Shown here piece by piece: positions 273 through 22,078 of a stretch of DNA of 64,000 nucleotides. The DNA is from Curvularia clavata (taxonomy: Eukaryota). Both the position numbers and the translations under genes were made by a program. The notes under the pieces are model-generated. The model was not told where the DNA came from and did not search any database. It worked only from the letters and a program-made list of their open reading frames with translations. The stretch spans positions 1,922,001 to 1,986,000 of the forward strand of contig CP089276.1 of the NCBI GenBank assembly GCA_023920165.1, given 5' to 3'. Within the stretch, counting starts at the first letter, position 1; each line of letters starts with the position of its first letter.

Positions 273-2082
273 TCACATCGACACTACCATACTCGCAGGG
301 CATTGAGAGATGAGGTGCAAATCGTGGTACTTGTTGTGGCATGACGCTCTTTCTTTCCCCCAGCAATGAAGGCAAATATCGTAGTTCTCGTCACACGTAC
401 AACAATCTGGTGATGAGAGTTAGTAAGCGGGAGTGGTTTTGCGCTGTTGACCAAACTTACGAAGGTAGAGACTGTCCTCTAGCATATCGCGAGAACAGTT
501 GTCGCAGGTGAGATCTATCATTCGGTCGACATTGTACCTTGGGCAGTCTTTTAGAGCATAAAACGCTTGCTTCAACTTCGGGGCCACTCGCAGATCGCTC
601 TGCCCATGGAAGAAGCAGCCCTTGCCCTCATCTATACAAGATCTACAAACGTTGATACGCAAATCGTAAGAACGACCCGACTTTGCATCTTTCACTTTCC
701 TGTCATTTTCCATGCACTTTTTGCATCCTGAGTAACTAACGTAAGCAACAAACTTATGCTATTTCAGAGGTGGTTCTTACTAGAATAATCTTCCGAGGCA
801 GAATAGCTTTTCAGGCAATGGTCGCAGAATGAGGTCAGGAACGCTCCCATTGTATCCTCGGCCGAGACTCCATCCACCGCATACTCTTTGTATGGTTGTT
901 TCATGCGAAATGCAAATTTTCGGCTTTTCACAAATTTCCATTCAGCGAAAACTCGTGATTTTCGCTCAAAGATGCCTGGTTGTGCTTTGGCATAGGCCGC
1001 CTCGCTGTCATCTCTGTCATTCCTTAAATTGATCTGGAGGAGCTGTTCGTGAAGAATTGCAAGTTCTCGTCTGTTGGCTTCTTTCTGCGCTGCATTGCTC
1101 GTCCGTAAGGCCTTTACTTTTTGGTCGAGTACCTCTTGGCGTTTGAAAGACTGGCTGAAAGACTGCTCCCGTAGTTGCAATCGTTGATGCTGTATCTCGA
1201 GCCGTTGCTGCTGTATCTCAAACTGTTGTTGTGCTAGTTTGAGCGTAATCGCATAAACTTCTTTCGCCCGCTGCATTTTCTGCTCATACTCGGCTTGTAG
1301 ATTCGCGAACTGTCTTGCTTCTGCTGCGCGGATTTGCATCAGCTCTTCTCTATGAACGATGGTCTTCGCTGCTTCGGTGTCGTCTACTGAACGCCCATGG
1401 TTGACAATCTCCTCCTGTACCCTCAATGTGACCTTGGGTTGGGGAGCGAACTGGGCAAGGAGTCCAATGCATTCATCCCGTTGATAAGGAATCCGTTCGA
1501 TTCGAGAGCCCTTAGATACCATCTCACCCCACCATTCCCACGTATCAGTAAGCTCTTGTCGGCGGCTCTGAATCGTGGTTTCAGTCTCCATGTCACAAAA
1601 ACTGAGACCGAGCACGATGTTTTTGAAGTTGTTATTGCCGCACAATTTCTTGAACATAAGAAGATTGCGTATCTGAGAGCCCCTTTGGCGAGGGATGTTT
1701 ACTGCTTGGAGGTACAAAAGACCATTCAACAATTGACCTTTCTGGAATGCTTGAGCCATCCAGCGTGCCAACTCACGGTAAACATCTTCGTCATCGCGCT
1801 GGCTATCATCGAAGCCTGGTGTGTCAACCAAGACATATGTGATTCCTGCTGATTGAAAGCGATACTGGGCGATCTCTTGCGTGACTATAAGATGCAGTGG
1901 CGTTAGCTCATCTCTCTGCAGATCGTATAAAGTGAATTTAAATTACGAGACTCAGTGTCAGTGCTGGTAAGTATGTCACTACATTGCGTGACACGTTTGA
2001 TGAAACTGCTTTTGCCGCTTCCAGTGACCCCAACAACTCCGATAACCACTTCATTAGCGTTAGTACTCCATGGAGATGACAT
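273..2082 (-). CDS. P-loop GTPase (AIG1/MMR_HSR1/septin-like) with central coiled coil and two C-terminal ZZ-type zinc fingers; 4 exons (2082-1947, 1884-781, 727-461, 406-273)
   Basis: G1 VGVTGSGKSS in exon 1 and G3 LVDTPGFDD in exon 2, followed by a Q/E/K/R-rich helical region. GT..AG introns at 1946-1885, 780-728 and 460-407 join the ORF fragments in frame, giving CDHC..RCKKC..VCRSC..C..H and CDNC..HCCTCDENYDICLHC..CHNKYH. Stop TGA at 275-273. Confidence 0.8.
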
Positions 2083-2768
2083 TCTCAACGGATTGTAGAA
2101 GCTTTCTGCAGAGTATGGAAGTTTCTTGAGGTATTGGGCAGGTTGCGAGGCTGAGACGCAGCCTTGCCCAAGTCGACTCCACCAACGCGTCTAGCATCCA
2201 GCAACTGAGATCCAGCCTCACATAAGGCCCCCCACACCTCCCCGCGAAAAGTGCAGAATGATCTGACTTGTTGATAGCTACAACCACGCCTAGACTTATG
2301 GTGCAATATTTTTCAAAAAGCCCAGTAACTATACTAATAGCCTTTCTAAGTTATACTGCATGGAAATTAAATCAGAATATTAAGTGGTGATTGAGTTATG
2401 GCACTATGAATGTTGGTATCCACCGTTCTGCATGTTCGCTAGGTGTCCCATTACCTGTGCCACAAAGATATCTATTTTAATAGCCGAGATCCAGCCCGAA
2501 AGCAAATATGCATTACATCACGCAATGATTGGCGGAATTGGTTCGATAGCGGATTATCTTTGATCCTTCGCAAGCCTGATAGAGATACAAGGCTGTCTCA
2601 ACTTGCCAAGTGTTGGTGGTGGTAAGACATTTCAAGGCAGATAATGCCCATATATCGTATCTCTGTGCTGCTGCAATCCGTTCTTACACTACAAAGCCAG
2701 TCTCATACCTGTTGAAAAAATCCAGGCCTGTCGGGCAGTCCCTCCACAGTAGCACACACTGACCCAGC

Positions 2769-4186
2769 ATGGCGAGCTCAGACTCCCTTAGCAACATCAT
2801 CAGGTATGCAACGATCCTTGTAGCGATACACGACTTCATCTTAAGGCCTTCATAGCGCCGGCGACATCATCATTCCGATAATGGGTATTACTGGCTCCGG
2901 CAAATCCACTTTCATTGCACGCTGTACCGGAAATGAAACTGGAATCGGACATAAATTGCAATCACGTAAAGACATACCTTTTTCTTAGAATCAATGATAG
3001 AGAATGAAGTGCGCTTTACTGACCCAATCTAGATACAAGCGAAGTTTTGATCCAATCCTTCAAGTACAAGGGCCATACGGTTAGACTGGTTGATACTCCT
3101 GGGTTCGACGACAGCCGTAGCGAATTTGACGATGCCCAAATTCTTAATCAGATTGCAGGTTGGCTCATGCTTGCCAGCAAACATAGCCCACCTCTCACAC
3201 TCAATGGGATCATCTATCTTCACCCGATCAACGAGGCTGGAGGCCGGATGAGGGGCACAGCAAAGAATAATCTGAATATGTTTCAGGCCATGTGCGGTGA
3301 CGAGCCTATGTCAAGTGTTGTCATCGTAACGACAATGTGGTCCAAGGTCAAAGAAGGCACTGGCCTGGACCTGCAAAAACAGCTTTCTGAACGGTACTGG
3401 AACTCCATGATAGATGCGGGTTCCAAAGTCGTGAAACATGATGATACTTCGGCTTCTGCGTTGCGTATTATTGAGCATATCATAGACCGTAAGGCACAGG
3501 TGAAGATGGGGCTTCAGACGCAACTCGTAGAAGGAGGAATGAAGTTGGAAGAAACTAGTGCGGGTCAGCAACTAAGAAGCAAGGTGATTGAGGAGCAGAA
3601 CAGAGCTAGGAACAAGCTTCAAGATGCACAGCAAGACCTTGAGCAAGCTCTTAGGGACCGCGACAACACAACAGCAAACGAGATACTCGAGCTGCAAGCG
3701 AAACACGATGCAATGATACGCGCAAAAGAGGATGAACTAAACAGCATGAAAAGAAGAGCAGATGATCTGTACCAGCGAACTCTCGAATCGTTGGCTGCTG
3801 CCGAAAAAGAGAACGCGCGACTTCAAAAGGAAGCAGAAGAGAATGTAGCTGCAATAAAAAAGCAGATTGAAGTTGCGAATAGACAGCAGTTGGAAAGATA
3901 CAACCCGCCTCCACCAAGCTACAGCAGCTACAGTGGCTACAGCGGTGCGAGCTTGGGTCGTCGGGATCCTGTGGCTGAGATGCAGCTGCAATTGCAAGAG
4001 AAACAAAGAGAGGCTGAGCTGCGCAGACAGGATGTGCAGATGCAGACTTTCTTTCACTATGCCTCGATGGACATTGCAAAGCAACAGCTTGATGAAGCCA
4101 AGCGGAGTGCGAAGTGGGGTAAGGCTGGTGCAGTCATGAGCACTGTCGGAGCTGTGGCTGCCGTTATGTCTTGCAACGTCATGTAA
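2769..4186 (+). CDS. P-loop GTPase of the same family with coiled coil and C-terminal CaaX motif; 3 exons (2769-2803, 2856-2965, 3033-4186)
   Basis: G1 MGITGSGKST in exon 2, G3 LVDTPGFDD, LNGIIYLHPI, G4-like TTMWS, family motif LEETSAG and a long coiled coil; ends SCNVM*. Introns GTATGC..TAG and GTAAAG..TAG keep the frame. Confidence 0.85.
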
Positions 4187-4434: not shown

Positions 4435-5334
4435 CTATAGTTCTTCTTTGTCAATTGGTACTCTGTTATACCCTTCTGCCCCCCAAACCCCATAATTGAA
4501 CATTCCCTTAACTTCACTTCCAATAGTGTCTAGCGCAAACGCTTGGAGGCTCGTTCCAATGATGTCCATCGTTATCGGTATCAATTTTTCAAAACGATAC
4601 GGAGGAGAACACCGGATAATCACCAAAATCATCCACTCTGAAATTCCTTGCACGTCAATGAGCGGATGCTTATCTGGCTGAGACTCCCTGCCTGCCCAGC
4701 GGTAGAGTGTCAAACTCATACCAGTCATTGTTTCAAGCTTACTGCGCTGCAAACTCGTCTCCAGGTAGTGTGCTAGCAGCTTGGCACTTTGTAGGTCCCA
4801 CCCATATGGAGTACAGAGATTGATTCTGGTAATCGTTTCTGAAGATGCTCCGGAAAACTTTGCACATGCTAACTCACTGCGTAGGTCCGAAAAATACATG
4901 TATGGACGCTCTATCTCTTTATAAACGGCGAATTTGGCATTGACGATATCGAAGACCATTGCGTTCTTGTCGCCATACCCTACCGGCTTCTCGTCCTCTG
5001 CAAGGGACCTGGTCTGTTCCAGATTCAATTTCCGGCTGACGTTGTAGTACGGCTGATTTTTCAAGACACCTATGTCGCCCACGAAACATGTGTACATGTA
5101 GGCAGGCCACTTGTCCGGTTTCTCTTCGTGCGAGTAATCAGTGGCGCCATTGAGGGCGACACCACGTACACAGGCGTCTATGTTGGCGCCAGAAGAAGCG
5201 TCCTTGGGGATATTGAGGAGATCCTTGTTATGGAGTTTGGTCCATCGATGGAATGTCTCGGCGTTGGAGTCGTTAGGAGAGCGGAGAAGTGGGTGAACGA
5301 GTAGTACACCGGGTTGAGGAGAGATAGAACCCAT
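4435..5334 (-). CDS. Hypothetical protein, possibly EthD-like/dimeric alpha-beta barrel
   Basis: 299-aa ORF. N-terminal FHRWTKLHNKDLLNIP resembles the F.RW...H..D.L.IP signature of fungal EthD-like proteins. An unrecognised in-frame intron is possible. Confidence 0.5.
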   Translation of the reverse strand: MGSISPQPGVLLVHPLLRSPNDSNAETFHRWTKLHNKDLLNIPKDASSGANIDACVRGVALNGATDYSHEEKPDKWPAYMYTCFVGDIGVLKNQPYYNVSRKLNLEQTRSLAEDEKPVGYGDKNAMVFDIVNAKFAVYKEIERPYMYFSDLRSELACAKFSGASSETITRINLCTPYGWDLQSAKLLAHYLETSLQRSKLETMTGMSLTLYRWAGRESQPDKHPLIDVQGISEWMILVIIRCSPPYRFEKLIPITMDIIGTSLQAFALDTIGSEVKGMFNYGVWGAEGYNRVPIDKEEL

Positions 5335-6528
5335 GATTTCTTTGGAGAGTGTGGAAATTGAGGCAAATAGTTTTGATGGGAAAAATTCGCCGATTCGGAA
5401 AATACGTTATTCTGACCCTGAAACGGTCCTCTTTTCGAGATTACTGCAAGCTAGAAAGAAGACTGTATGTAAAAGCGCCTGTGGAAAGAGCAAATTATAT
5501 CTGTCAAAGCAGGGGCGAAAAAGAAAAGCCATCTACTACCAAAGACTGCGAGGCTTATTTGTTCAAACACGACATGGGATTTCGTAGCTCCTTTCTTTCT
5601 CATCTCAGCTATTGGTGAGTGCGTTTATTTGGTAACGGGAAAAGGGCATTGGGGTCCCGGACGTGCAGCACTAGGCATGCATGCCCTATCTGATGCTGCA
5701 TATGACATGCATGCATCCCTCATTCCACATGTAAGAAGGAAATAATTTGGAAGAAACCACAGTGTATAGCCAGTCCGGTTGCATCGGCAAGGCAGGTGTG
5801 TAGTCTAACGCACGATTCCCGGTGTGCTGAGAGGCATCTCGGCCCCTCTATCACTCTCTATACCATCACCACCGCGTGTCTTCGTGTATAAGTTTATCCA
5901 AACTACGACATGAATAATTGTACGAATGTCAAATTGCAGGAACACGAAAGGACTAGACAAAATAAGAATTTTTTTCGAGTACATATGATCAACAAGCACA
6001 ACGTCTCCAAGCCACCCACTTCATCATCTCAGTTCCTTGGAAACATTACACATTGCAAAACCTGGCGCAATTTTTCTAGATCAGACAAGACACACCTATT
6101 CACTTTGGCAGAGAAACAAGAACAAAAAACAAAGAAACCAACTGCAACAACAAACACAATTAACGAATACCTCGAGCAGACACGATAGAGATACACAAAA
6201 CGCAAGAGCCCTCGCTCATAATCCAACCTCCAAAAATCCCCAATCAAGGAAACAAGAAACAATCGTTCACGTCCATGGTCTCAACTCACCATACCAATCA
6301 CACAGAATGGACTCATGACACTTTTAATCGGCCTTGAAGCTACCCACCTAACAAACATGTCCGCCTTGAATCTCCAGTCTGCACTATCCCCTTTCCTCTC
6401 ACCCTCAAAAATAGTGCCGATCCCTCTCCTCTCATCCTCAGACCCAGTCAATTCAAACCAATATAAACCAGGAGCAGGAAAAAAAACATGCAATACAAAA
6501 GCTGCCATACGCTTTCACACTCTGAGAT

Positions 6529-6551
6529 AAAAAAAAAAAAAAAAAAAAAAA
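6529..6551. repeat. Mononucleotide A23 tract
   Basis: Direct count of the A run, downstream of the RSC4-like gene. Confidence 0.9.
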
Positions 6552-6822
6552 CGACTCCAAAAATTCTTCCAATGCAAAAATACCTCATACCCAATTGCCA
6601 TTTCCCCAGATAAGCTAGATATGAATAGAAAGAGGTAGAAGAGAAGGACAAGAGAAAATCAGAACCTCTCTTCACATTCGCCTACCGCAGCAGTGCAAAT
6701 GCCAAAAAACACACTACTTTCGCATTTCCCCGCAAAAAAACTCCCGTCAATGAATCCTCGCCGACCCAATCTCAGAGCATTACTCTACCACCCTCAAATT
6801 CCAAATCGACCAAGAGAAAACT

Positions 6823-9613
6823 CTAATTGGTCGCCTGCCTGGGTAAATGCAAGAAAATCGTACACTTTTCAATTTCCACGTCGTCCTTCTTCGCCGCTCC
6901 AGCATTGGCATTCTCATTCTGTTCTTTCCGCTCCTTCTCGGCAATGATTTCAACTTCTATACGGTTGACGCCACCAAGGAGCTTAGCTTCGAACAACGGC
7001 TCTCCCTTTTTCTTTCCGCCTTCGTAGCCGGGACCAGGAGTGGCACCATTGATGCCTGCTGTGACAGGGACGCGGTTCGCCTCGAGAGTCTTGTTGCCGT
7101 TGACGGTGACAAAAAGACGGTACATGCGGTTGGTGAGGGCGATGGGGATCTTGGGTATGATTTGGATGTACGAGTGGCTGGGGGCGACGACCATGGTGGC
7201 GCTGTATGTCGTCTTTTGGGTGTTGGCGAGGATGTTGACGGACCATGGCTTTGAGGCACTGAGTGCAGGGTGGGTGTTGAGTGAGATCTTTGGTATTAGT
7301 GCTTCTTCAGGGCCTGCATAATTGTTAGAAAAAAAATAACCCCATTAAACAGACTACACCTACTCTTGAGTGGAACTTTTCTGAAGCAATCAACTCGGGG
7401 TACAGGAGGCGCATGGTAACTCTGTGGCTGTTGAGGAGCGTAGTGGCCATTCTGCAGACCAAGACCGTTTGGATGTGGACTGCCGCTTCCCGGGCGGGAC
7501 ATATTCTGTGGTGGAGCCATGTTCGGATGTGGCGTTTGTACCGGAACACTGAGTCGTGAGTTGTCGGGTGCCGTGCTCGCAGGCCTTATCGCGCTCAACG
7601 CCGGAGATTGTACATCTTGCTTGACACCGTTGACAGGTGAACCCGCAGTCCTGCTCTGGCTTGCGGTCGATGGAGGATTATTTGAAGCGCCGCCCTTTGA
7701 CCCGACAAATGGATTTGTGGATGCTCCAGGGGTTCCTGCTTCGCCTGATGCGGCCCGCGATGACCGGTTGCCCATGCTATTGAGCACATGTCGTTGCTGT
7801 CGTAAAAGAGCGTCATTGTCGACAATGACACCTGGTGTTGCAGAATCGCGAGCACTTGGCGTATGAGGTTCTGAACCTGGGCTTGGTTTGAGCTTGAGCT
7901 TCAATTGCTGTTTAGGAGCCGCTGATGCTGTGGACATATTGAGCTTGAGCTTGGGCTGTGCTGGCTCGTTGACCTTTGATTTGGCTTCCTCGAGTTTCTT
8001 GTAAAAGATTTCCTGTAAGAGTCAGTAAAAGGCTGTTCAAAATTGGTGGGTTGACGTACCTCGAGTTCTAACGAAAGGTTGTAAATATCGCTGCCATCTT
8101 CGTTATAGATGCGTGCGTTCTTCCAGATCAAGCTGAATGCACTCTCAAAAGCGTCCCAGCTTTTGAAAAGGGTATGGCCTGTGGGAGCTTCACGTCCAAC
8201 AACGCCGCGAACCTTCTTCTGTATCGCAGATAGTGACATGGGATCCTTGATCAGCTGGTAGTAGTCTTTCAAGCTGCGTGATGGAAGATTGTGGAAGGGG
8301 ATGAATATTTGTAGGCCTTGGTCCTCGTAATCCATAATCTCACGCACAATCTGCTCCTGTGCCTGCTGGAATGTCTTGCCCTCGTAGTCTGCGCCATCGT
8401 TGTCTTCCGGTACTGCAGAGGCTGATTGTCGCAGTTTTGACGGGGCTGGTGTAGCTGATGCTGCCAGGGCGGCTGCCCGTCGAGGACGTTCAACGGTTTC
8501 ATGGGTAGCGGGTGTCTGTGGGGCCTTGGGTGTTGACGTAACGCGGGGCGACGGTCTTGACGGAGTAGAGTTGTCTTCACCAGGGATGGGCGTAGCTACT
8601 GCGACGTAGTTGCCGTCTCGGTATGCTGGGTTGTGCTTAACCATCCAATTTGAGGCGGTTTTGCGGAGGCGCTCGGCATCTTCGTATATGAGTGACTTCT
8701 TGTCGTTGTATGTCTTTGCATTGTTGACGAGCCGTTTACAGTCGCTCTCGACTTGGGCGAGGCTGGAATATTCGCCGTTGAGCAGTTTTTTCTGGGCGCC
8801 TTGTGTCAGCAATGGCACACTGGCTTACGAGTAGCAATTGGGAGTATGTGGTGGTGCTGTTGAATTCGTATTGGGGGAAAGACGCGTAGCGAGCATGTGA
8901 AGGAGCAGGCAGGTGGAAAGCGTACCTCGATGGTGTCAATGGCAATAGGTAGCTTGGTGAACTCGTAGTACTCGGGCACTTCGTCCTAGATAGAAACGTT
9001 AGCCTAGGCCGTGACAGAAGGCTAGCTAGAGCATACCCTGTCTGGAAGCGTGAGGAAGTGAACTGCAATGGGTCGTCCACTATAAGCCGTTAGTAAGAAT
9101 TCCGGAAGATGGCTTGCTGGGGCAGCATGGAAACTGTCCCCTGCAAGACTAGGGACAAAGGGAGAGCACGCACGTCTTGTCCTTTGCCTGCCTTAAGCTG
9201 TCGAGGAACTTCAAGCCCGCTGTTGTCGTTGATTCTACCGTCTCCGAGTTTGCATTGGTTTCGGCCTGCACGCGAGCGGATCGCAGTCAGCATTGTTTCG
9301 CCCGTCATTCCGTGGTGTTTCCCTAGTCTCGGATGCATCGCCGGTGTGCGCGTGGTGTTTGGGGGAGCGCGGAGGGGTCGACGGAGGTGGTGGTGGCCTG
9401 CTCGTCGAGCCGCCCAGGTGTCGCGCGCTCTTGTCCAAAGCCCATCCCGCATCGCGACCAAGACGCATCGTGCATCTCCAGAACACAGCCCCGACGATGC
9501 ATCAAACCTCCCCCATGGACTGCACGTACCGGCCCTTTTTGCCGCTTCGCAGGGCGATTGTCGTGCTCGGCTGCAGCGGCGCTTGCGGCTTTCCGCTTGG
9601 CCGCGCTCTCCAT
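6823..9613 (-). CDS. RSC4: Tandem-bromodomain RSC chromatin-remodelling subunit (Rsc4/polybromo-like), multi-exon
   Basis: Spliced exons give MESAAKRK..KGP / AETNAN..AKDK / TGRPIAVHFLTLPDR / DEVPEYYEFTKLPIAIDTIE / KKLLNGEY..LVNNAKTYN (bromodomain 1) and DYYQLIKDPMSL..IWKNARIYNEDGSDIY (bromodomain 2), then a C-terminal beta-rich domain ending GVNRIEVEIIA..EKCTIFLHL. Confidence 0.75.
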
Positions 9614-10028
9614 TTCCAGTACTTTTGGGATCGCGTAGTCTATCCGAGCAGGTTGCAGAAGGTCTCAATGCGAGTAGGGATTGTGGCGGCGGTGCAGTGA
9701 ATTGCGCGTTCGGTCGTCAACCCGGTGGACGCGCCGCAGTGTCAATCTAGGGTTCTCCCGACTTTGCCAAGAGCGGCGCACGAGCCAGCCGCGCATCACC
9801 GTCGTAGTTGGAGACATTAACCTGCAGCAACAACGTCACAGCACATCGTCTCCCAAATCAGACCGCAAACACTGAAATGACCATTCAAGAGCTACTAGGT
9901 GATGAATCCTGGCTGCTGTCTCTCAGGGGTATACAGGGAACAAGGAGACCGTCCGCTAACGCTGCAGCAACCCCATATTTGCCAGTACAGCTTTGAAATA
10001 AGAGAAAAGACTGCCCACCAACCCCTCT

Positions 10029-11528
<1,500 letters not shown>

Positions 11529-12488
11529 GATGGGCGAGTCGGAGTGCAGTTATACGACTGCGACAGGCGTGTGTTTGGGCTGGGGGGTCAGACTCGGGAG
11601 TGCCTGTCAGGCGCGTTGTCCAACAGTTCAGCTGGCTGTGGGGGGGGGCGGTTGATGAGGGGTAGGTAGATATCAGCGGTTATGTAGCAGGGCGTTGTCC
11701 GCAAGAAAAGCCAAGGGCCAGCAGTGCAAGGCAAGAGAAAAGGAGGCGCCTGGCTGGGTTGGGTCAGCAGCAGGAGTCAGTCGACGTCTGATATTGAACG
11801 AGCTGGAGGTGCACCTGGGCCAACGGTGGGGGCAGGCGCACCTGAAGGGGTCGTGTCCGCCTCGCGGCCTGTGGCTGATAACTCATGAGGCGCAGCGCAG
11901 GCTAGCCGTGGACTAGCTGCCACACCAACCCGACATTGTCGTTCTATTTTTGTTTTCCACGCCTGCAAGGCTGTATTGGCGTCGCATTCCAAAGCGCAAT
12001 CTTGGGCATATCTGCTATTATACGCCCATGTATCAGCAATATCCAGCCTGGGCTATTTTGGCCTGCCGCGCTTGTCAGCCGCCATCACTCCACTGTGGCT
12101 CCGGAGCAGCGAGCAGGGGCCGTGTCCAGTCCACCCGGTAGCGCGTCTGCATGCATTCATCTTGTCGTGGGCACACGGTCAGTGCATGGCGAGGAAAGAG
12201 AATGCCAGTCTAGCGACGAACGGCTGCTGTCAAAAGGCCTAGTTGCCGTTGTTCCAGGGCCCATCCCGAAAGGGGCAGCGGGTGTGGAGTGGGAGCAAGG
12301 CTGGCAGGTTTTGCATGTGCCATTGCTACGTCATGCCCGTTGCGCCTACTACATAAAATCAGGGTCTCAATCAACACACAGCTATTTCATCTCATCTGCT
12401 CACTTCTTGTTCTTCTTTGCCCCAGTATCCTTTCTACCAATTCCATTACCCCTCACACCACGCAAACACTCTCTCCACTCATCCAACC

Positions 12489-12845
12489 ATGGCTGTCAGC
12501 TTTCTCACCATCTTGGCGGGTCTAGTTGCCCTAACCGCAGTCTACTTGTACTTCTTCGGCATCTCGCCTGAGCTGAAGCGAAAGATGGAACGACAGGCCC
12601 TCAAGACCATGGGCGAAAACAAAATGTCTTACATGACAAAGGGTAAGTCGCCGTGTTCCTGCATATCAGACATCTGCTGACGCTCTCCAGACGCCATCAA
12701 CAAGGTTCCTGCCTCTGACCAAGAGGATGTCAAGAACCTCAAGAAGGGTGTCAGCAACCTTGCCGGCGGTGCCATGCAGAATCCGCTTGGAGAGCATGCT
12801 GGTGAAGCTGCAGACAGCCTTACCAGTCCTCTTACTGGTCGCTAA
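12489..12845 (+). CDS. Small single-pass membrane hypothetical protein (~102 aa), 2 exons (12489-12642, 12691-12845)
   Basis: Hydrophobic N-terminus MAVSFLTILAGLVALTAVYLYFFG. Intron GTAAGT..CTGAC..CAG; exon 2 continues DAINKVPASDQEDVKNLKKG..PLTGR*. Confidence 0.75.
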
Positions 12846-13180
12846 TGCCTCCTTTGTGTGCAGTTCGCGCGGTTACCCAAATCCGGGACTCATCGGCGAA
12901 TTTGGCCAACAAGGCACCAGATCCACAATGACGAGCAAGGCGCAGGCTGCGGTTCAGTAACAGGTCCTGGAGAAAGCGGAGTAACGGCGTATGAAAAGTT
13001 GGGTGGAAAGGTGGTTGGACGTCCTCGATGAACGGCTGGTTGTTCGTTTGCAGATCGGATTGGCTCTTCTCTTTCCCCGGCGGTTCTGATGAATTTCCCA
13101 CGACTCTAACGATTCCTTTGTAATGACATCTGATATCTCATGACCCTCAATCAACCAATCAATATCTTGCCCTCACATCC

Positions 13181-13576
13181 TCATCTCCCCTTGATCCCGC
13201 CACTCCACACCAACCAAGCCACGCCTTCCCAGCACAGCACAATCCCCCAAAACACCGCTTGAAATCCACTCTTCCTCGTCTTGTGTTGGAAATAATGCAT
13301 ACCCGCTAATGCGCCCGGCCACCCTCCCGCTAGCGCCAGTGTCTGCAACGTCGTTTCCCTGACCCTCCAGTTCAGGTTCCGTGCTTGCATCTTATCGTAG
13401 CCGTAGAACAGGAACGCCACCCCGCTCACAGTACTACCATAGAGGATCGCATAGACTGGGAGTTGTGATGCGGCGTAGAGCCGCATGAGTGCTGCTGCGG
13501 GGAGAATGAGCGAAGCGACGCCCGCGAGTGTTGCTATGGTCCAGGGCCGATGGCGGGGGCGCGCCCGCGGTACCAT
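13181..13576 (-). CDS. DUF1294 family membrane protein
   Basis: FLFYGYDKMQARNLNWRVRETTLQTLALAGGWPGALAGMHYFQHKTRK matches the DUF1294 signature (YG.DK..A...WR..E..L...GGW.GA...F.HKT.K). Confidence 0.85.
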   Translation of the reverse strand: MVPRARPRHRPWTIATLAGVASLILPAAALMRLYAASQLPVYAILYGSTVSGVAFLFYGYDKMQARNLNWRVRETTLQTLALAGGWPGALAGMHYFQHKTRKSGFQAVFWGIVLCWEGVAWLVWSGGIKGR

Positions 13577-14309
13577 GGCTGTGTGATTGAGTGCTCAAGG
13601 GCAAAGACACGGATACATCGTTGGCGGCACAACTGCAGGCACTGAATCGACGTGTTTTTCGAGAGGCGATGCGCGATGACTTGTACCTTTTTGATGTCTT
13701 GTCGATCTCCCGTTTCGACAGACATGCGGCGCTTGTGCGGAAGAGGTATAGTCGGTTGAGGGACTAGCAACTACTCGTAGTATACTCAACCCTCCAACCT
13801 TTGCAATACGCTAGACACTGTTTCTCATCCGCTTCTTTCTACTCAATTCCACCATTAGATATTTCCAGCACCAAAAGGCCAGCTCTATACTAACATCCTG
13901 TTCGTGGTCGAACCACTCATAGCAGCGTTGCGAACTACCCGAGCAAATCGACTTGAGTTGATTTAGCCAAGAATCAGGCGTCAAATTGATGTTGAAGCTC
14001 TATACATAATGCACAAATACATTGAACATTTTGCTATAGTAAAATAGCAGCAATTTTGGCGGGGTCTTGGTACTTCTACCTATTCGTCTGCCCGCGTCTC
14101 TCGCCAGTCCGCGTCTTTTGCCCGTCTCCGTCTTTCGCCCGTTCCAAACATTAGTCGTATAGCCTACAGGTAAACAAACTTGTGCTATCTGAGAAATGAA
14201 TGGTTATTATAAAGGATAGTCTTCAAGACTAGGCTATTGTTAATCCTCTCATTCCCATTATCATTCTCAAGTTTGGCAGCCCATATTTCCAAGACTCAAA
14301 ATCCACACC

Positions 14310-14869
14310 ATGACACCGCCAGTCCTGGAAGGAAACAAATTCTGCAACACAGCCATAAGGGTTAAAAACATAGATGGTTCTACGAGCTTCTATGTTGGTG
14401 TCCTTGGTATGAAGGAACTATATCGTATGGCTCTACAAAACGCAACCCTTGTATGGCTCGGATACCCCAACTGTGCTGACGACAGTACTCCACTGAGCAG
14501 GAGAGAGGGGGTATTGGAGCTCGTCGCTAAGAAAGTTTGTTCCATGTACAGACGTGGCGTAAAACAATGTAGCAGCTGACATTGGAAAAGGATTCTCATG
14601 TAGATGATCAGCATGATCATTCCAACTCGCATCCTATCAAGCTCGCCTTCCATGTCGCAGACTTGCCTCAGTTTATGGAACGTGTCAAGCAGCAAAATAT
14701 AAAAGTATTGAAAGAAGTGGGAGCTGCAGAAGCCCCAGAGGCAGTGGCATCATTCATGGGCTGTACGCCTACCGATCTGAAATCTGATGCGGTCGTATGG
14801 GAGAGCTTGAAGGAGGTTTGCTTTGTAGAAGACCCGGATGGTTATCTTGTCGAGATTGTGCCGTATTGA
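14310..14869 (+). CDS. Glyoxalase/VOC-family protein (lactoylglutathione lyase-like), 2 exons (14310-14534, 14591-14869)
   Basis: TAIRVKN..STSFYVGVLGM, REGVLEL and FVEDPDGYLVEI; intron GTTTGT..CTGAC..AAG in phase 0. Confidence 0.8.
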
Positions 14870-15315
14870 GCAGCGTGGCCTGATCATCGTATCGCTGGCC
14901 AGGATAGCCAGCACGTTAGACTCTGCTAAAACACGAGCTTTTCCTGCTATAATGGATCCTGAGGCTACAGCTTTATGAGTCATTCTGATTAACACAATCC
15001 TTGTCACGGTTAATTTCCGATTCGTCAAAGGGCCATGTCACCAAATTACAGTAATAAAAAGCTTGTTTCTGAATATGGATATCAATGCGATTCCTACACA
15101 GCTGGTTAAGAAATTAAACACTAACACTACCTTCCAAGCCACCAGACTAATTGACTTGCAATCAAGTATGTTTACAGTTATGTGCGCTTTGTAAAGCGGG
15201 ATTCACATAGACAAAGGAAAACACATCAAGGGCGTGACGCAGCGAGACCCATAGTTTAGACTTGAAAAATGTGTGTGATCCGCTAAATACAAGACATGAT
15301 GACTCTTTCAAAAGC

Positions 15316-17006
15316 TTAAGAGGAAAGAGCATCAACGCAGCCAAAGTGCTGCTCAACACCGTACGCGCCAGCAGCCTTCCAGGTGTCGTCCTGGAAAGAG
15401 AAGACACAGGCGTGAGAGCCAACCTTCTCCTGGATGCTCTTCATGGCGATCTTCTGGTCCTCCACGCTAGCGATGGCCTTGCCGTTGGCCTGGCCAGAAG
15501 AAGGCCAGCCAATCTCGCCAATGTACTTGCCCTTGCCAGCGGCGCCAGGGCACACCTTGGCGGCTTGGTCGAGTTGCTGGGCAGCAAAGTCACCAGCCAT
15601 ATCGGCGCTGATGGACTGGGTGAAGTAGGGCTGGACCTGGCAGACAAAGACGTCAATGTGGTCGCAGAGGGCAGCACCCATCTCCTCCCAGATGTTGACA
15701 GGCTCAGTGGTGGTGACGGCAACAGACGAGGGGAAACCAGCGCCCTGGAGCTCCTGGCGAACGTGGTCAATGTAGGAAGCGAGCTCCTCGGGCTTGCAGT
15801 TGCCGTTGAACATGCACTCGTTACCGACGATGACCATGGCGACAGAGTCCTTGGGGGCCTTGTTCTTAATGTCCTGGAGCTGCTCGTCGGCGTACTGGGA
15901 GAAGCAGCCCTTGCCGTCCTTGCCACCAGCCTCGAGGAAGATACCGTAGATGATCTTGAGTCCATGCTTCTGGCACTCGGGAACGACGTGCTCGAAGACA
16001 CCGCAGTCAGTGCTGTAGGAGCGGATGGTGGTGAAGCCAAGATCAGAGATCTTCTTGATATCGGAGGCAATCTCCTCAGCAGTCTTGCACTGACCAGACT
16101 GGGCGTAAGGAGTGTAGGTGATGGCCCACTTGTCGCCGTTGGTTACAATGTGGCCATTGCCACCAGCGGGGGCAGAGGGCTTGGGCTTGTCACTTCCTTG
16201 GGAGGGAGTGGGCTTTTCTCCAGAGGGGTAGGTAGCGGGCTTGCTCTGCTCAGGAACAGCAGGGTAGGAAGGCTGGTTGGGCTTAGGGGTCTCAGGCTGG
16301 CTGGGCTTGGACTCCTTGGGAGGCTGAGGAACAGCCGGGTAAGCAGGCTGGCTTGGCTGGGGAACAGCCGGGTAGGCTGGCTGGCTCTGCTGAGGAACTG
16401 GGGCAGGTCCAGTGGGCTTGGGGGTCTCCTCAGTGCAAGAGGTAGACTCAGGGACAGCAGGCTTGCTTTCCTGGGGAACGGCCGGCTTGCTTGGCTGGGG
16501 GACCGAAGGGTAACCGGGCTGGCTCTGCTGAGGAACAGCGGGCTGGCTCTGAGGGGGAACGGCAGGGTAGCCAGGCTGGCTCTGCTGGGGAACGGGGGCA
16601 GGTCCAGTGGGCTTGGGGGTCTCCTCAGTGCAGGAGGTGGACTCCGGGACAGCAGGCTGGCTCTGCTGAGGGACAACAGGGTAGCCAGGCTGGCTTTGCT
16701 GGGGAACAGCTGGGTAGGCAGGCTTCGAGACCTCTGGGACAGAGGGCTTGGGGGTCTCAGGGGTGGCAGTGGGGTAGTGAGGAGCTGGGTGCTCTGGAGG
16801 AAGTTAGGATACTACTTCATCTTTTCAGCAATTGCTCCGTGGAAGAACTAACCTGGGGTCACGTAGACGGTGGTGTAGACCGTGCAAACATCAGCCTGAG
16901 GAGCCACTGGGTACTCGTGGCGGCGCTGGTGGAAACCAGCATGGGCCTTGTGCTGAGAGGCGAAGACTGACCCAACGAGGGCAGCGGTAACAAAGGCGTA
17001 CTTCAT
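15316..17006 (-). CDS. Secreted GH17 cell-wall beta-glucanase/glucanosyltransferase (BtgE/Scw11-like) with Pro/Gln-rich repeat linker; 2 exons (17006-16853, 16793-15316)
   Basis: Signal peptide MKYAFVTAALVGSVFA; catalytic domain WAITYTPY..GQCKT..IRSYSTDC, VIVGNE, YIGEIGWPS and FSFQDDTWK..GAYGVEQHFG. Confidence 0.85.
16230..16760 (-). repeat. Intragenic imperfect tandem repeats encoding (A/G)YPAVPQQSQP units and two copies of PAVPESTSCTEETPKPTGPAPVPQQSQP
   Basis: Near-identical ~60-bp blocks start at about 16402 and 16597, interspersed with repeated ggctggctctgctg.ggaac motifs. Confidence 0.85.
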
Positions 17007-18524
17007 CTTGGATGCAATAATAGGTTTTTAGTAGCTAGGGCAGGGTGATCGTCCGCTGAGCGAGTGAAGCGGGTAATATTAAGGTATAATGTGTATAACG
17101 AGTGACGGGGCACAATAGGCCAAAGAATTACTTGCCAACGAGGCGATGCGTAACGAAAAGCCTTGCGTAACGACAAGAGAAAAGAATTCGAAACCAGGCT
17201 GGACAGCCAGCGCTTTTGAGTGATGGGCCATGGCCTGTGAGCCAACCAGGCAGTGGGCCGCTGTGGCTCAAAAGGCGTTAGTTAGGGGTGCTGGAAATTA
17301 CTACGGCTATTGCTGGACAAGAAAGGTATGGACATCCTGTGACCGGCTCTATTGAGTTCCCAAGTTGTCCCGAGCGGAAATGACATCTGGGGTATGGCGG
17401 TCGTGTTGGGTGGAGTGCGGATCGGCTCTAGCCTCGGATGCGGTTAAGCGCATTTACCCTGCTTCACCCTGAACAACACGACCAAGTGCGTCACTACAAG
17501 CACAATGCTACCTTTCGTACGCGCGCATTCCTCTGGATGCCATGAATCCTTGCGTATCAAGGAACACACTGCGCCTTTCTTACATACTCGCCATGGATGG
17601 ATCCCTCAGCTGTCAAGGCGTGCCGCTCCTGTGCTGACAGCTTACCAACGGGCACCTCACCAAGCCAATGACATTCCGGCTAACGGCAGTGACCATAGCA
17701 TTTCACGCGTGGTTAAGTCTTGTGCATCTCACAAGGACAAGGCGGAACCATGGCCACAGCGCTAGTTAATATGCAGGTACCGAACGGTCTGGGCAGGGAA
17801 TTGCTTTCCTGACCGCTGTTTAATTGGCCGAGGTTCGTATTCATGACATGGGGGAAGGACGGTAGTGGAGGCCTGGGGGCGTGCCCCCTTTCTACGACTC
17901 AATGCCACACAGAAATAGTATTCCCGCTAGTTATCGATGATGGACGTTGCTAAGCTCTCTGGACAGGGGTGCCTGTCGCGCTGAAACTTTATTATACATT
18001 TGTGCGAGCCAAATGCTATAGAACTGTGAGGCTGCCAGAAATGAGATCGACGCATATGGCCATTCCCACGCCGCGGAACCAGGTGCGATGCAGATAATTC
18101 GTCTTGTAGCCGAGTGTGCTTGTATCTACAGTGCCATTCTATCTTGTTGTCGACCATGTGCAACAAGGGTCAGCCGACCATCGACCTATATAGCAACCCC
18201 AAGCGCGGGTCTTATTCGCGCTAGGGACTGGTTAGTTGACACGAGACTGGAGCTACGACAATGGACTCGGCAAGTATCGTTATACTAGCAAATTAGCAAG
18301 TCATACCTTATCACAATCTCCGATATTCATATAACATGTCATCATCACTGGGAGTTCACTACACATCGGCTGAAATGTTGCTGACAGTAATTATCTCTTA
18401 CTATTGCATCTATCGCATTTATTGCTGAGAAGACATTCAAAACTATGGAAAAAGATATTATACATTCATCATTACAGCAATGCCAAGCTCTCCACGGCAA
18501 CTTCAAACTTACTTTTCATCTTCG

Positions 18525-19739
18525 CTATGCCCTGACACTCTCTGGGCCATAATAGTGTGCTCTGAACATATTCGAAAACTCCTTTGCCCCGTTTCCACTA
18601 AAATGCCCTTCCTTGCCCCTGGCAGTCTTGATCGCTGCCTTTGTCGATCGCGGAAACATCTCCTCCTCGTAATCCCTGATACCATCGTCGAGGCTCTTCT
18701 CGCCCTTGCATACCTTGACTATCTCCTGTGACAACACATAGGCATCCTTCATGGCGACATTGACCCCCTCACCAGCGAATGGTGTGAACACATGCGCTGC
18801 GTCCCCGATGAGTGTCACACCGGAGCGACGCGGCCAACGGAACCCTATAGGCAGCTCGTAAAGACCGCGAACCGTCAGGCTATCGTTGCAAGACAAGACA
18901 ACGCGCTTCAGGTCCTCATGAATGTGCGATAAATGGCGCTCCATATACTGCTTCAGTGCTGAATCTTTCTGCGTCCAATCGATGCCGCAAGTCTTGAGAA
19001 AATCTTCCGGTACCCTCAAAGAAGCATATGTCAGCAAACTACCATCGCCCTGTCGCTGAGCCTGGACAGCGCAGCCCTCTCCAAAGGCCATCATTGAGCC
19101 CTCCCCAGCATATTTGAGCAGCCAAGGATCTGCCTTGATATCGTCACAAGTCAGTACAACTGCCGAAATACCAGAGTACGCCGGCATCTGGTCCGTCAGC
19201 GCCTTGCGAACCTTGGACCACGCCCCGTCGCCCCCGACTACCAGATCTGAGCCTTGTTCTATCGTACCGTCCGCAAATACCAGGTCGTACTTGGCCTCGC
19301 CATTTTTCGATGGCACCACCTCTTTCAACTTTTTTCCGAACTGGACTTTCCCCTTCTCCAGTCTCTCAAACATGATTGTCGCAAGGGCCATGCGATCAAT
19401 CTCAGGCCTCGAATCAAACGCTGCCTCGCCTTCCTTGGCCTCTTGCTTGTCGCCCTCATTCTCATCCCAAAAGACCTCGCCGGTTATGAGGTGGACTACT
19501 TTCATCACGTCGCTCTCAGGCCGAGCGTGCTTTTTGAATTCCTCCCATAGATCTGCTTCTTTGAGGGCGAGTTGTCCGGTTTGCGGGTGCAGGTCTAGGG
19601 ACCCGCCTTGTGTGCGGAGAACAGGTGAGGACTCATAGACTGTGAAGGGGATGCTGTGTTTTTGGAGAATGCAGGCGAGGGCGAGCGAGGCTGGGCCGGC
19701 ACCTATGATGCTGATTTTGGGGTGTTGCGGCGATGCCAT
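18525..19739 (-). CDS. FAD-dependent monooxygenase, TetX-like subfamily, intronless
   Basis: IIGAGPAS, QGGSLDLH, RPEIDR, VVGGDGAWSKVR and TLIGDAAH..TPFAGEGVN motifs. An upstream in-frame ATG at 19760 is possible. Confidence 0.85.
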   Translation of the reverse strand: MASPQHPKISIIGAGPASLALACILQKHSIPFTVYESSPVLRTQGGSLDLHPQTGQLALKEADLWEEFKKHARPESDVMKVVHLITGEVFWDENEGDKQEAKEGEAAFDSRPEIDRMALATIMFERLEKGKVQFGKKLKEVVPSKNGEAKYDLVFADGTIEQGSDLVVGGDGAWSKVRKALTDQMPAYSGISAVVLTCDDIKADPWLLKYAGEGSMMAFGEGCAVQAQRQGDGSLLTYASLRVPEDFLKTCGIDWTQKDSALKQYMERHLSHIHEDLKRVVLSCNDSLTVRGLYELPIGFRWPRRSGVTLIGDAAHVFTPFAGEGVNVAMKDAYVLSQEIVKVCKGEKSLDDGIRDYEEEMFPRSTKAAIKTARGKEGHFSGNGAKEFSNMFRAHYYGPESVRA

Positions 19740-20996
19740 GGTTTCGTCGCTTGACGGCATGGATTGTTGTTGGTTTTTCCAAGTCAAGAGTTTGGGTTCG
19801 GCAGAGAAATGGGTTGTGTGTAAAAAGAAGTAGGTAGTAGAGACCAGACGACTCGAGTTCCTCTTTCTTGAAAATCGGAGTCAAGGGTTCGTCTCTGTGT
19901 AATGAAGTAGCTGTCAGGGTGCTTCTCTTCAAGTCCAGGAGTTTGTACAGAAACGACTCCTATACTCTCTTTCTACTGCGCCATTTAAGTACTTTTTCTT
20001 TCACCTTCCTCGAGTTTATTTTACGTCTGCCTAGATGCTCATCATCACGTGAAACACCCTTCTCCTGCAACAGCCTGAGCGATATCCGGCGCTTCTCGGA
20101 TGCCTCGCTCGTTAGAAAAATGCGAACGGTATACACGGTGTACGCATTCTAGTCTCGGTGCCGAGCGGTCTGTTGTAAAGTCCGAGGGGCCGCTAATCCA
20201 TCGACCACCGATTGATCTACTGCGCCACAGGCAACCAACGCCTTATGTGTGGTTATTTGCTCTCTTCTAGTCCAGTACCTATGGGCGCCTAGGCTACGCG
20301 TAATTCATGCTTTAAAGTTCTCACCTAGTGACCATGACTGCATTCATCGTGGTAACCTATTCTCCGATTACTCATCTTGCCTTTCAATTTTGTTGATCAG
20401 TTGAGGTGCAACTCACAAAGCAGGGATATGAAACGCGTTCAGGAATCTGTCTTTGCTCGATACAAACTCCTTATCTTTAATTATCAAAATTGTATCAGGG
20501 ATAAAAAACGTAGAAACATGTCGGATAGACGACTAAGACCGAAATAGGCAGTTTACAATTGGGGATGTACCTGAAAGTCACGTGGTGGCTGCCTGATGTA
20601 CGTCACTTAGTATGGGTGTGGCTGTAGGGATTGCTTCTGGAATTAGTTCGGAATTATATCCCCAACAAGTCTTGAGTCTTTAACCATCCCTGCTATACTT
20701 GGGCAAAATTGTCTGGCGGTGTGCACTTGCGCTTTTGCTGTGATTACATCCGATCAGTAATGGGCTTATGGACCATCATCACAGCGCATCTGTACTAGGC
20801 GTACATGCAATCCCGCGCACAAAGCACTTAGGCACGTTGATGGAGCGGGCCACAAGCTTCCGCTGCCCAATCGTGCGAATTACGTCGTGGTGTTGGGTCG
20901 TGCTCATTCAGGAACCACAATTCCTGGAAACCCCCAACAAGTCTCGACTCCCTCGGGAAAACATCCACGTCATTGGACCCTTAATCAATAGGCCTA

Positions 20997-22078
20997 TCAA
21001 GTCAAACCCAGACCCAAGCCTCGTCGATTTTTCCCCAAACCAGGTCTTTTGGATGCCAACGGAATATTGTGGACTGCGTTTCCAACCCTGACTTTTACAG
21101 CGTCGAACATAGCGCTTGGCGAATCAATGTACTTGCTTGTGTCAATGCTTTGCACGAGAGCTGTCCATTGGGCGTCGGGCTCAGCCAAGTTCCAGGCTAT
21201 GCTGACGTGGAAATATTGCGAGCAATCTTGGGGCTGGGGATCATTCTTGTCGACCTTCCTTCTCTTTGGGCCGCGGTTTTGGTCAACGTCTTCCATCGGG
21301 CCGTCTCCTGCACCGCCGGTATACAAACCAGGGTGTCCGGTGTCTGTAGCAGCTTGGTTGCAAGCACGCAGTAGAGTGTTGAGCTCATCATTCTCTGGCC
21401 GCTTAATGCTCAGGACCAAGAACCAGCGATTGCGCTCAAAGTTGGGCACCCATTTGAGGCCCTGAAACTCGAAGTTGAATGCTGGCACTGCGCTTCGTCG
21501 CAAAGAAGCGCTCAGTGTTTCGAGAAATGTTTCTCTGTCGTCAGTCTTGATTTGCAACGTCCGCGATAGCGATACATGCAGAGGCAACGGCACACCCAGG
21601 TCTGATTGGAGCGAAGGCTTTATCTCTGGTATTGACAGTTTCTTGATGCGTTTAGCGTTTTCCAGTTCAAGTGTGTTCTTCACGTGCTGTATCAAACTGT
21701 GCAAGGCATGGGACTCAGGCTGTGTCGGGATCCCTCCAACAGGTTAGTTGGTCTGCTATGGATGCTGCTCGTGATGCCGTGCTCGTAAGTATCCTTACAC
21801 TCTAGGTAGACGTGACTGGGCCAATTGCCCTGCACGTGAGGGACAGCGCGCCGACGTCCGCCATGTAGGTCTGGATTGTCGCTAGTGCTGACACGGGCAT
21901 TTGTTGCGTAGAGGTCGTGAAAGGCTGGCGGCAGTGGTGGCAGAGCATGTGCGTCGGTGGCTCCACCGCTGCTGGGCGTGGGCTTGGTGGCAGCAGGCTC
22001 GGTAGGGTCGACGCGGATGTTATCATGCCCTGTCTCGTCGTCGTCGGAGGCAGAATCCGGATAAGCGACGAGGGCCAT
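20997..22078 (-). CDS. USB1: U6 snRNA phosphodiesterase Usb1; 2 exons (22078-21799, 21733-20997)
   Basis: [32 protein letters not shown] and two 2H motifs, LHVSLS and FHVSIAW. Confidence 0.9.

Follow-up and report, generated by a model that had tools for sequence, protein, structure and literature searches.

A head-to-head pair of paralogous P-loop GTPase genes in Curvularia clavata that is conserved in distant fungi

The window analysed here is a stretch of 64,000 nucleotides of the forward strand of Curvularia clavata contig CP089276.1 (assembly GCA_023920165.1, positions 1,922,001 to 1,986,000), and its positions 273–4186 hold two paralogous P-loop GTPase genes that are spliced, expressed and arranged head-to-head, gene A on the plus strand and gene B on the minus strand. 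The main new result is that this pair is old and has been co-inherited across distant fungi. By analogy with known GTPases we consider it somewhat probable that the pair is a two-gene module of the Pezizomycotina, in which distant GIMAP/AIG1/Toc34-like (paraseptin-type) GTPases with long stalks would be expressed from one promoter region and would pair as an anchored and a soluble partner. The genes and the region between them are as follows.

2769–4186, plus strand: gene A, CaaX-tailed GTPase of 432 aa; exons 2769–2803, 2856–2965 and 3033–4186, with the ATG at 2769 and the stop codon ending at 4186
273–2082, minus strand: gene B, GTPase with ZZ-like fingers, 546 aa; exons 2082–1947, 1884–781, 727–461 and 406–273, with the ATG at 2082–2080 and the stop codon ending at 273
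2083–2768, between the two strands' start codons: shared divergent promoter region; the contigs of B extend to 2146 and those of A start from 2532, with about 2147–2531 lacking transcript cover

Recurrence of the gene pair in fungi

Seventy-three fungal loci were fetched from metagenomes with a profile of A, and the family genes in them were located by tblastn (105 hits). Adjacent family genes form 32 pairs, 16 of them divergent, 14 tandem and 2 convergent, and at gaps of 3.5 kb or less the numbers are 16, 5 and 2, respectively; both convergent pairs are junctions between two divergent pairs, on loci L002 and L005. Eight divergent pairs consist by score of one A-like and one B-like gene (L002, L004, L005, L010, L011, L017, L049 and L068). 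Their members fall in an A clade (31 rows, SH-aLRT [Shimodaira-Hasegawa-like approximate likelihood ratio test] support 84) and a B clade (21 rows, support 88) of a quick IQ-TREE tree, built on 87 G-domain rows that were picked from 254 and comprise paired or CaaX-bearing genes and representatives, and the sub-groupings of the two clades match.

The A-side genes of these eight pairs are only about 33–39% identical to A, and the 5' ends within the pairs are 612–2230 bp apart. In all five pairs that could be evaluated the A-side product ends in CxxM, and a hydrophobic stretch is found on this side in L004, L010 and L011, not in L002 and L005. On the B-side, CCxC...CxxC is present in all four evaluable pairs, and the position of an intron directly before CCxC is conserved (L002, L004, L005 and L068). 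Homologues of A and B are in addition found on contigs of equal size in seven further cases, including Didymella, Lophiotrema and Microthyrium, and the named members belong to the Dothideomycetes, Lecanoromycetes, Leotiomycetes, Eurotiomycetes and Sordariomycetes. The initial annotation of this DNA had proposed, as a test of a functional pair, that homologues should recur head-to-head, and they do, the same two clades being arranged divergently in eight loci of distant fungi.

Some loci show further arrangements. On L002 (247–8194) and L005 (1169–8736) two divergent GTPase pairs lie side by side on one contig, and in the A/B-type pair of these loci both partners are CaaX-ended (CVLM or CMLM, with CAIM or CVIM on the B-side) and lack the hydrophobic stretch. 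In protein P0174 of Aureobasidium melanogenum (791 aa, on 17 contigs) the first half resembles A and the second half B, which makes it a possible natural fusion of the two, here taken from a gene model only.

Gene models and transcription

The model of gene A is identical to database protein P0001. RNA evidence came from the spliced contigs of runs X1 and X4, taken from two studies, and from contigs of runs X9 and X18; both introns of gene A appear as GT..AG joints in all four runs. The three introns of gene B are all joints in the spliced contigs of X1 and X4, and the gene is 100% identical to database protein P0121 over exon 2. Because every intron of A and B is confirmed as a joint in the contigs of X1 and X4, these runs derive from RNA and the same samples express both genes; X9 and X18 cover parts of both genes. 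The database counterparts are two adjacent Curvularia clavata entries with locus tags ending in _04359 and _04360. No third copy of the family was found by tblastn within the 64-kb window.

P0121, the public model of B with 483 aa, runs on into the intron 460–407, skips part of exon 727–461 and is without the last exon. The second zinc finger of B is absent from it, and the RNA contigs support a product of 546 aa with two fingers. Exon 727–461 is included in X1 and X4, the joint upstream of it (726–780) is found also in X18, and no exon-skipping joint was reported. Since the spliced contigs include this exon, the 3' end of the public model is wrong, and the present analysis corrects it.

The spacing of the two start codons, first estimated at about 690 bp, is exactly 686 bp (2083–2768). 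Within it about 385 bp are free of transcripts, as in a divergent promoter shared by two genes. The expected co-expression is found as co-presence and not as strength, with transcripts of both genes, one on each side of this gap, in the same runs. The description of the genes as paralogous and yet strongly diverged is also correct, with a BLASTP identity of 27% over 205 aa (E value 3e-21), confined to the G domain.

An 11-mer, GAGATCCAGCC, is present in exact form at 2207 and 2486 and as a near copy at 2153, all within the shared promoter region, and the 17-mer at 2469–2485, just before the 2486 copy, resembles the 17-mer at 2326–2342. These intergenic repeats are short, and GAGATCCAGCC may be the site of a regulator or a product of chance. 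The 5' leader of A (2621–2780) shows low-depth alternative joints, one of them (2620–2696) in X9 and X18, and a joint at 2620–2781, seen in X18 only at depth 2, would delete the start codon of A.

G domains, fold and C-termini of the two proteins

The G-domain motifs are located as follows.

2884–2907, plus strand: P-loop (G1) of A, GITGSGKS
3092–3112, plus strand: G3/Walker B of A, DTPGFDD, invariant among A orthologues
3329–3346, plus strand: G4-like motif of A, TTMWSK, with Ser where the Asp of the family stands, as judged from the clade consensus
2008–2031, minus strand: P-loop (G1) of B, GVTGSGKS
1805–1825, minus strand: G3 of B, DTPGFDD
1589–1606, minus strand: G4-like motif of B, LSFCDM, with the Asp retained

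The motifs first read from the DNA are present in both proteins: G1 (GITGSGKS in A, GVTGSGKS in B), G3 (LVDTPGFDD in both) and the L.G..YL strand (LNGIIYL and LNGLLYL, respectively). When the canonical G4 motif [NT]KxD was sought, TMWS was found in A and SFCD in B; the pattern of the family is T-[KMQ]-W-D, and the Asp is lost in A, as in most of the A clade, and kept in B. An Arg is conserved after the LxGxxYLH strand (R120 in A and R111 in B). A paraseptin arginine finger is mentioned in an excerpt of PMC11238149, and the Arg of A and B could be the counterpart of this finger as found in Toc or GIMAP proteins.

Both proteins pass the cut-off of Pfam MMR_HSR1 (PF01926), with 33.9 bits for P0001 and 40.4 bits for P0121 against a cut-off of 21.9. 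These values are for the full-length database proteins; single exons gave sub-threshold P-loop matches only, because the introns split the G domain and the fingers. When a profile of B was run against 1.84 billion representatives, 6293 relatives were found at E<=1e-3, and of the 150 best of them 51 were scanned with Pfam, many lying above the cut-off of Pfam AIG1 (38.6 bits for P0194, 62.3 for P0210 and 108 for P0183).

The AlphaFold2 model of A, built on an alignment of 10 sequences with a mean predicted local distance difference test score (pLDDT) of 60.8, has a G domain to about residue 200 followed by helices at 224–257, 263–337 and 361–427 that are of low confidence. The stalk of A is accordingly modelled as long and helical, and a coiled coil is suggested for B by its composition only. 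Foldseek ranks GIMAP7 (E value 1.2e-8), Toc34, GIMAP2 and GIMAP5 at the top for this model, and in VIA-align it scores Z 15.6 with GIMAP7 (209 residues, root-mean-square deviation 3.8) and Z 15.5 with GIMAP2 (192 residues). The sequence profile of A weakly matches GIMAP4, GIMAP5, GIMAP7, a septin, GBPs and Toc120/90 among PDB sequences, where GBP1, GBP2 and GBP5 are weak P-loop matches with E values of 0.007–0.03, and the profile of B gave coiled-coil noise only, at E values above 0.03. Because of the fold ranks, the matches of the A profile and the relatives above the AIG1 cut-off, A and B can be placed in a large fungal family with affinity to the AIG1/GIMAP/Toc "paraseptin" GTPases. Of the first assignment to GIMAP/AIG1-type GTPases the affinity stands, the closest folds being GIMAP7, Toc34 and GIMAP2 in a near tie with other GTPases, and the formal membership does not, neither protein reaching the AIG1 cut-off.

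Other members of the family are fused to further domains. GTPase-WD40 fusions are found on L018 (3640–5400) and in proteins P0241, P0282 and P0302, and P0312 of Trichoderma harzianum is a PNP_UDP-GTPase-ankyrin protein. In all these layouts the family GTPase takes the position usual for NACHT or NB-ARC. With members in such NLR-like architectures, the wider family may have a defence-related role. In an excerpt of a study of Sordariales, an orthogroup with MMR_HSR1, Septin and AIG1 matches is excluded from the NLR candidates (PMC12258605).

Beyond the G domains and stalks the two proteins carry the following features.

3905–3946, plus strand: Pro/Ser/Tyr linker of A with a PPxY motif (PPSY), between two predicted stalk helices
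4118–4171, plus strand: Gly/Ala-rich hydrophobic stretch of A, GKAGAVMSTVGAVAAVMS, mean Kyte-Doolittle hydropathy 1.12, with 58% small residues
4172–4183, plus strand: CNVM, the CaaX box of A and predicted signal for farnesylation, which follows GKAGAVMSTVGAVAAVMS directly
606–826, minus strand: zinc finger 1 of B, aa 399–454, CDHC...CKKC...CRSC...CFFH, spanning the intron 780–728
324–506, minus strand: zinc finger 2 of B, ZZ-like, aa 488–530, CDNC...CCTC...CLHC...HNKYH, spanning the intron 460–407

The CaaX end of A has a conserved Cys in the fourth position from the C-terminus and Met as the last residue, and all 10 of 10 A orthologues share C429 and M432. A final Met in a CaaX box directs farnesylation, by the farnesyltransferase type of enzyme. 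Of the proteins found with A, 43 of 120 end in C-x-x-M, compared with 2 of the 51 found with B; in 33 of these 43 the preceding 19 residues average 1.0 or more in hydropathy, and 47–74% of the residues in the hydrophobic tails are small. As the stretch in A is less hydrophobic than a typical membrane-spanning helix, it may be a second anchor lying in the plane of the membrane. Among the 17 closest A orthologues, 16 have the PPxY motif at a distance of 84–103 aa from the C-terminus. The motif is present in 18 of 45 proteins with a CxxM end and in 8 of 126 others, and 0.3% of shuffled sequences contain it. WW domains, for example those of Rsp5, classically bind PPxY, and A may accordingly be bound by a ubiquitin ligase of the WW-domain kind, for instance Rsp5.

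In B the spacing C-x2-C...C-x-C...C-x2-C...H-x3-H fits a ZZ finger. The fingers of the window itself are split by introns, and the ZZ scans used a 60-aa part of the Didymella orthologue P0124, a protein with a single intact finger and, behind it, an SH3 domain (54.9 bits). ZZ_ADA2 matches this part with an E value of 0.005 and 17.4 bits, and P0178 with 16.5 bits. The best non-antibody PDB matches of the P0124 finger are the ZZ domains of KCMF1, PRT1 and ADA2 (E values 0.14–0.8), and the top three Atlas clusters for it are ZZ at 0.82–0.86, which is a lead only; an AlphaFold2 model of the 60-aa finger alone had a pLDDT of 51.7 and was unusable. ZZ-like is the best reading of the C-terminal fingers of B, not an established one. 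The initial annotation was right that the two C-termini are complementary, with a conserved CaaX-type end in A and ZZ-like zinc fingers in B, and wrong in expecting the C-terminal partner to be variable, the B module being a conserved ZZ-like one in 4 of 4 evaluable pairs.

Proposed pairing, other explanations and known systems

In the two-gene module that we favour, A would be farnesylated at Cys429 and, together with its hydrophobic helix, would sit on the cytosolic face of an endomembrane. B would be soluble and its ZZ fingers would bind a protein ligand, for which free N-termini are a candidate because the ZZ domains of p62 and PRT1 bind N-degrons or free N-termini, as stated in parts of PMC5524641 and PMC12370974. 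GTP-dependent pairing of the G domains of A and B, helped by the stalks, would then bring B and its ligand to the membrane of A, or let B regulate the GTP cycle of A, in parallel to soluble GIMAP7 acting on anchored GIMAP2. The relevant extract of PMC8201404 describes anchored GIMAP2 and GIMAP5 as binding GTP without hydrolysing it alone, and soluble GIMAP7 as stimulating GIMAP2. The loss of the G4 Asp in A and its retention in B fit unequal roles of the subunits. The heteromer of A and B is proposed by analogy.

Several results weigh against such a module. Five of the 16 divergent pairs are A-like plus A-like (the first pairs of L002 and L005, and L018, L023 and L051) and three more are ambiguous or truncated (L021, L026 and L029). 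In a search to an E value of 10, the A-clade gene of L008 had no partner within 2.9 kb upstream, and the A-clade genes of L031 and L023 (at 10001) are without a divergent partner, their neighbours being tandem. Tandem arrays or singletons, without CaaX ends, are all that a large group of loci with about 32% identity contains, and for this reason pairing characterises the A/B subfamily and not the family as a whole. The clade supports, 84 and 88 in a quick tree, are moderate, and contig depths do not rank expression, so that co-expression of A and B means co-presence in the same runs. With a cut-off of 27 bits, Pfam AIG1 (PF04548) was missed by both proteins (18.4 bits for A and 24.2 for B), and the cut-off of 27.5 bits for ZZ_ADA2, in the test for a Pfam ZZ finger (PF00569/PF25299), was reached neither by P0124 (17.4 bits) nor by P0178. 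Septin 9, EngB, Arl2 and Toc34 are within 1 Z of the GIMAPs in VIA, for a model of A that is weak at a pLDDT of 60.8, and the hydropathy of the stretch in A (about 1.1) is low for a transmembrane helix.

A and B might also be independent paralogues, left by an old inverted duplication that gave them a shared promoter, each acting alone or as a homo-oligomer and kept adjacent by shared regulation or chance. Homodimers are known for GIMAPs, Toc33 and septins, according to PDB titles and an extract of PMC8201404, and divergent duplication is common in the family, since the five pairs of two A-like genes are divergent. This explanation, which we find unlikely though worth keeping in mind, has to account for the same pairing of A clade and B clade in eight loci whose A-sides are no closer to A than about 33–39%, for the recurrence of the complementary ends (CxxM in 5/5 and ZZ-like fingers in 4/4 evaluable pairs), and for the skew in orientation, with 16 divergent against 2 convergent pairs. 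It is also at odds with the rapid scrambling of gene order (mesosynteny) that Hane et al. reportedly described for Dothideomycetes in 2011.

An innate-defence module would overlap with the membrane-anchored pair favoured here and would protect membranes from intracellular threats in the manner of GIMAPs, plant AIG1 and farnesylated GBPs, A serving as the membrane scaffold and the ZZ fingers of B sensing new N-termini that foreign or activated proteases produce. By structure the closest relatives are GTPases associated with immunity, PMC6866125 lists the Arabidopsis AIG1 family as prenylated and induced by pathogens, the ZZ domains of p62 and PRT1 are reported in passages of PMC5524641 and PMC12370974 to bind N-degrons, and the family is large (6293 representatives at E<=1e-3) and includes NLR-like architectures. 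Defence genes typically evolve fast, however, whereas the A/B pair is conserved one-to-one under purifying selection, and the ZZ assignment is sub-threshold, and we regard a defence module as distinctly unlikely. Less probable still, and put forward as speculation, is a two-component membrane sensor of N-termini, in which the ZZ fingers of B would capture new N-termini released by foreign or stress-activated proteases and GTP-driven co-assembly with farnesylated A would give a GIMAP-like organelle scaffold that triggers defence, autophagy or cell death, with the PPxY of A recruiting an Rsp5-type ligase. If true, this N-terminus sensor pair would be an ancient fungal counterpart of animal GIMAP/GBP immunity in the form of a fixed two-gene unit.

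A role in allorecognition had been suggested by the initial annotation, together with allelic diversity, and neither is supported. In the four runs, a small sample, nearly every contig matches the window at 99% identity or more. Single-base differences number 20 in 4.1 kb, 17 of them in coding sequence with 13 of those synonymous, and there is one further Leu/Val difference at an exon junction; the genes are not highly polymorphic in these runs. Orthologues are one-to-one, the nearest relatives being 76–82% (A) and 77–79% (B) identical, one of them named Alternaria alternata. According to Pfam there are no HET, NACHT or HeLo domains in A or B, and no HET or NLR genes among the eight longest neighbouring open reading frames scanned within 22 kb. 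The neighbours at 4435–21743 look ordinary, and five of the eight scanned reading frames are without a Pfam match. The remaining three are the following.

7904–8824, minus strand: bromodomain gene (Pfam)
18528–19880, minus strand: flavin adenine dinucleotide (FAD)-dependent monooxygenase (Pfam)
21000–21743, minus strand: HVSL-family gene (Pfam)

Fungal incompatibility loci typically hold linked gene pairs, and the wider family has expansions, tandem arrays and NLR-like fusions (GTPase-WD40 and P0312), but the low and mostly synonymous divergence among the four runs, the one-to-one orthologues, the domains lacking in A, B and the eight neighbouring reading frames, and a literature search on fungal GIMAP, NLR and allorecognition that yielded no fungal paper using the word GIMAP make a polymorphic allorecognition or heterokaryon-incompatibility locus, like the linked het or doc genes, very improbable.

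Among known systems, the best structural match of the proposed anchored and soluble pair, by less than 1 Z over other GTPases, is GIMAP2/GIMAP5 with GIMAP7, which likewise have a G domain followed by helices or coiled coil. The vertebrate GIMAP genes are clustered. Anchored and soluble GIMAPs pair via their G domains, as an extract of PMC8201404 has it, and A and B may pair by analogy. Unlike the GIMAPs, A and B are below the Pfam AIG1 cut-off, A would be anchored by CaaX and a Gly/Ala-rich helix and not by a transmembrane tail, the soluble fungal partner B has ZZ-like fingers, and the fungal genes form a strict divergent two-gene unit. The GIMAP family is described in an excerpt of PMC7053062 as lacking, as far as known, in representative fungi such as yeast. 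The plant AIG1/IAN proteins are also AIG1-type GTPases, and Arabidopsis AIG1 is listed among prenylated proteins of biotic stress in PMC6866125, a precedent for a prenylated AIG1-type GTPase. Their similarity to A and B is, in contrast, only at a sub-threshold Pfam AIG1 level. We know of no paired ZZ-finger partner of AIG1/IAN in plants.

Toc34 and Toc33 are among the top folds (Z 14.4–14.8), and in Toc33/34-Toc159 a small anchored GTPase pairs with a larger paralogue, with dimerisation controlling the GTPase activity (PDB titles 2j3e and 3def). The Toc proteins differ in being a plastid import machine and in having neither CaaX, ZZ domain nor long stalk. GBP1, GBP2 and GBP5 share with A the order of GTPase, helical stalk and C-terminal CaaX box, and prenylated GBPs recruit non-prenylated paralogues, but the GBPs have a dynamin-like large GTPase fold and their likeness to A is weak and limited to the P-loop region. 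The ZZ fingers of p62, PRT1, KCMF1 and ADA2 resemble those of B in Cys/His spacing, with sub-threshold ZZ_ADA2, KCMF1, PRT1 and ADA2 matches, whereas the fingers of B are tandem and fused to a GTPase and stalk and match below the Pfam cut-off.

A literature search found no description of the A/B pair, the Sordariales orthogroup of PMC12258605 coming nearest to one. GIMAP/AIG1-type GTPases have been studied in vertebrate lymphocytes, plants and some invertebrates, and the cooperation of anchored and soluble members is still unsettled. The fungal pair is a minimal version, with one anchored and one soluble paralogue as predicted, kept as a divergent pair in several classes of Pezizomycotina and found in genetically tractable organisms. 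If A and B do pair, they would offer a tractable model for regulation of the GIMAP2/GIMAP7 style, and a first handle on a large uncharacterised fungal family with 6293 representative clusters.

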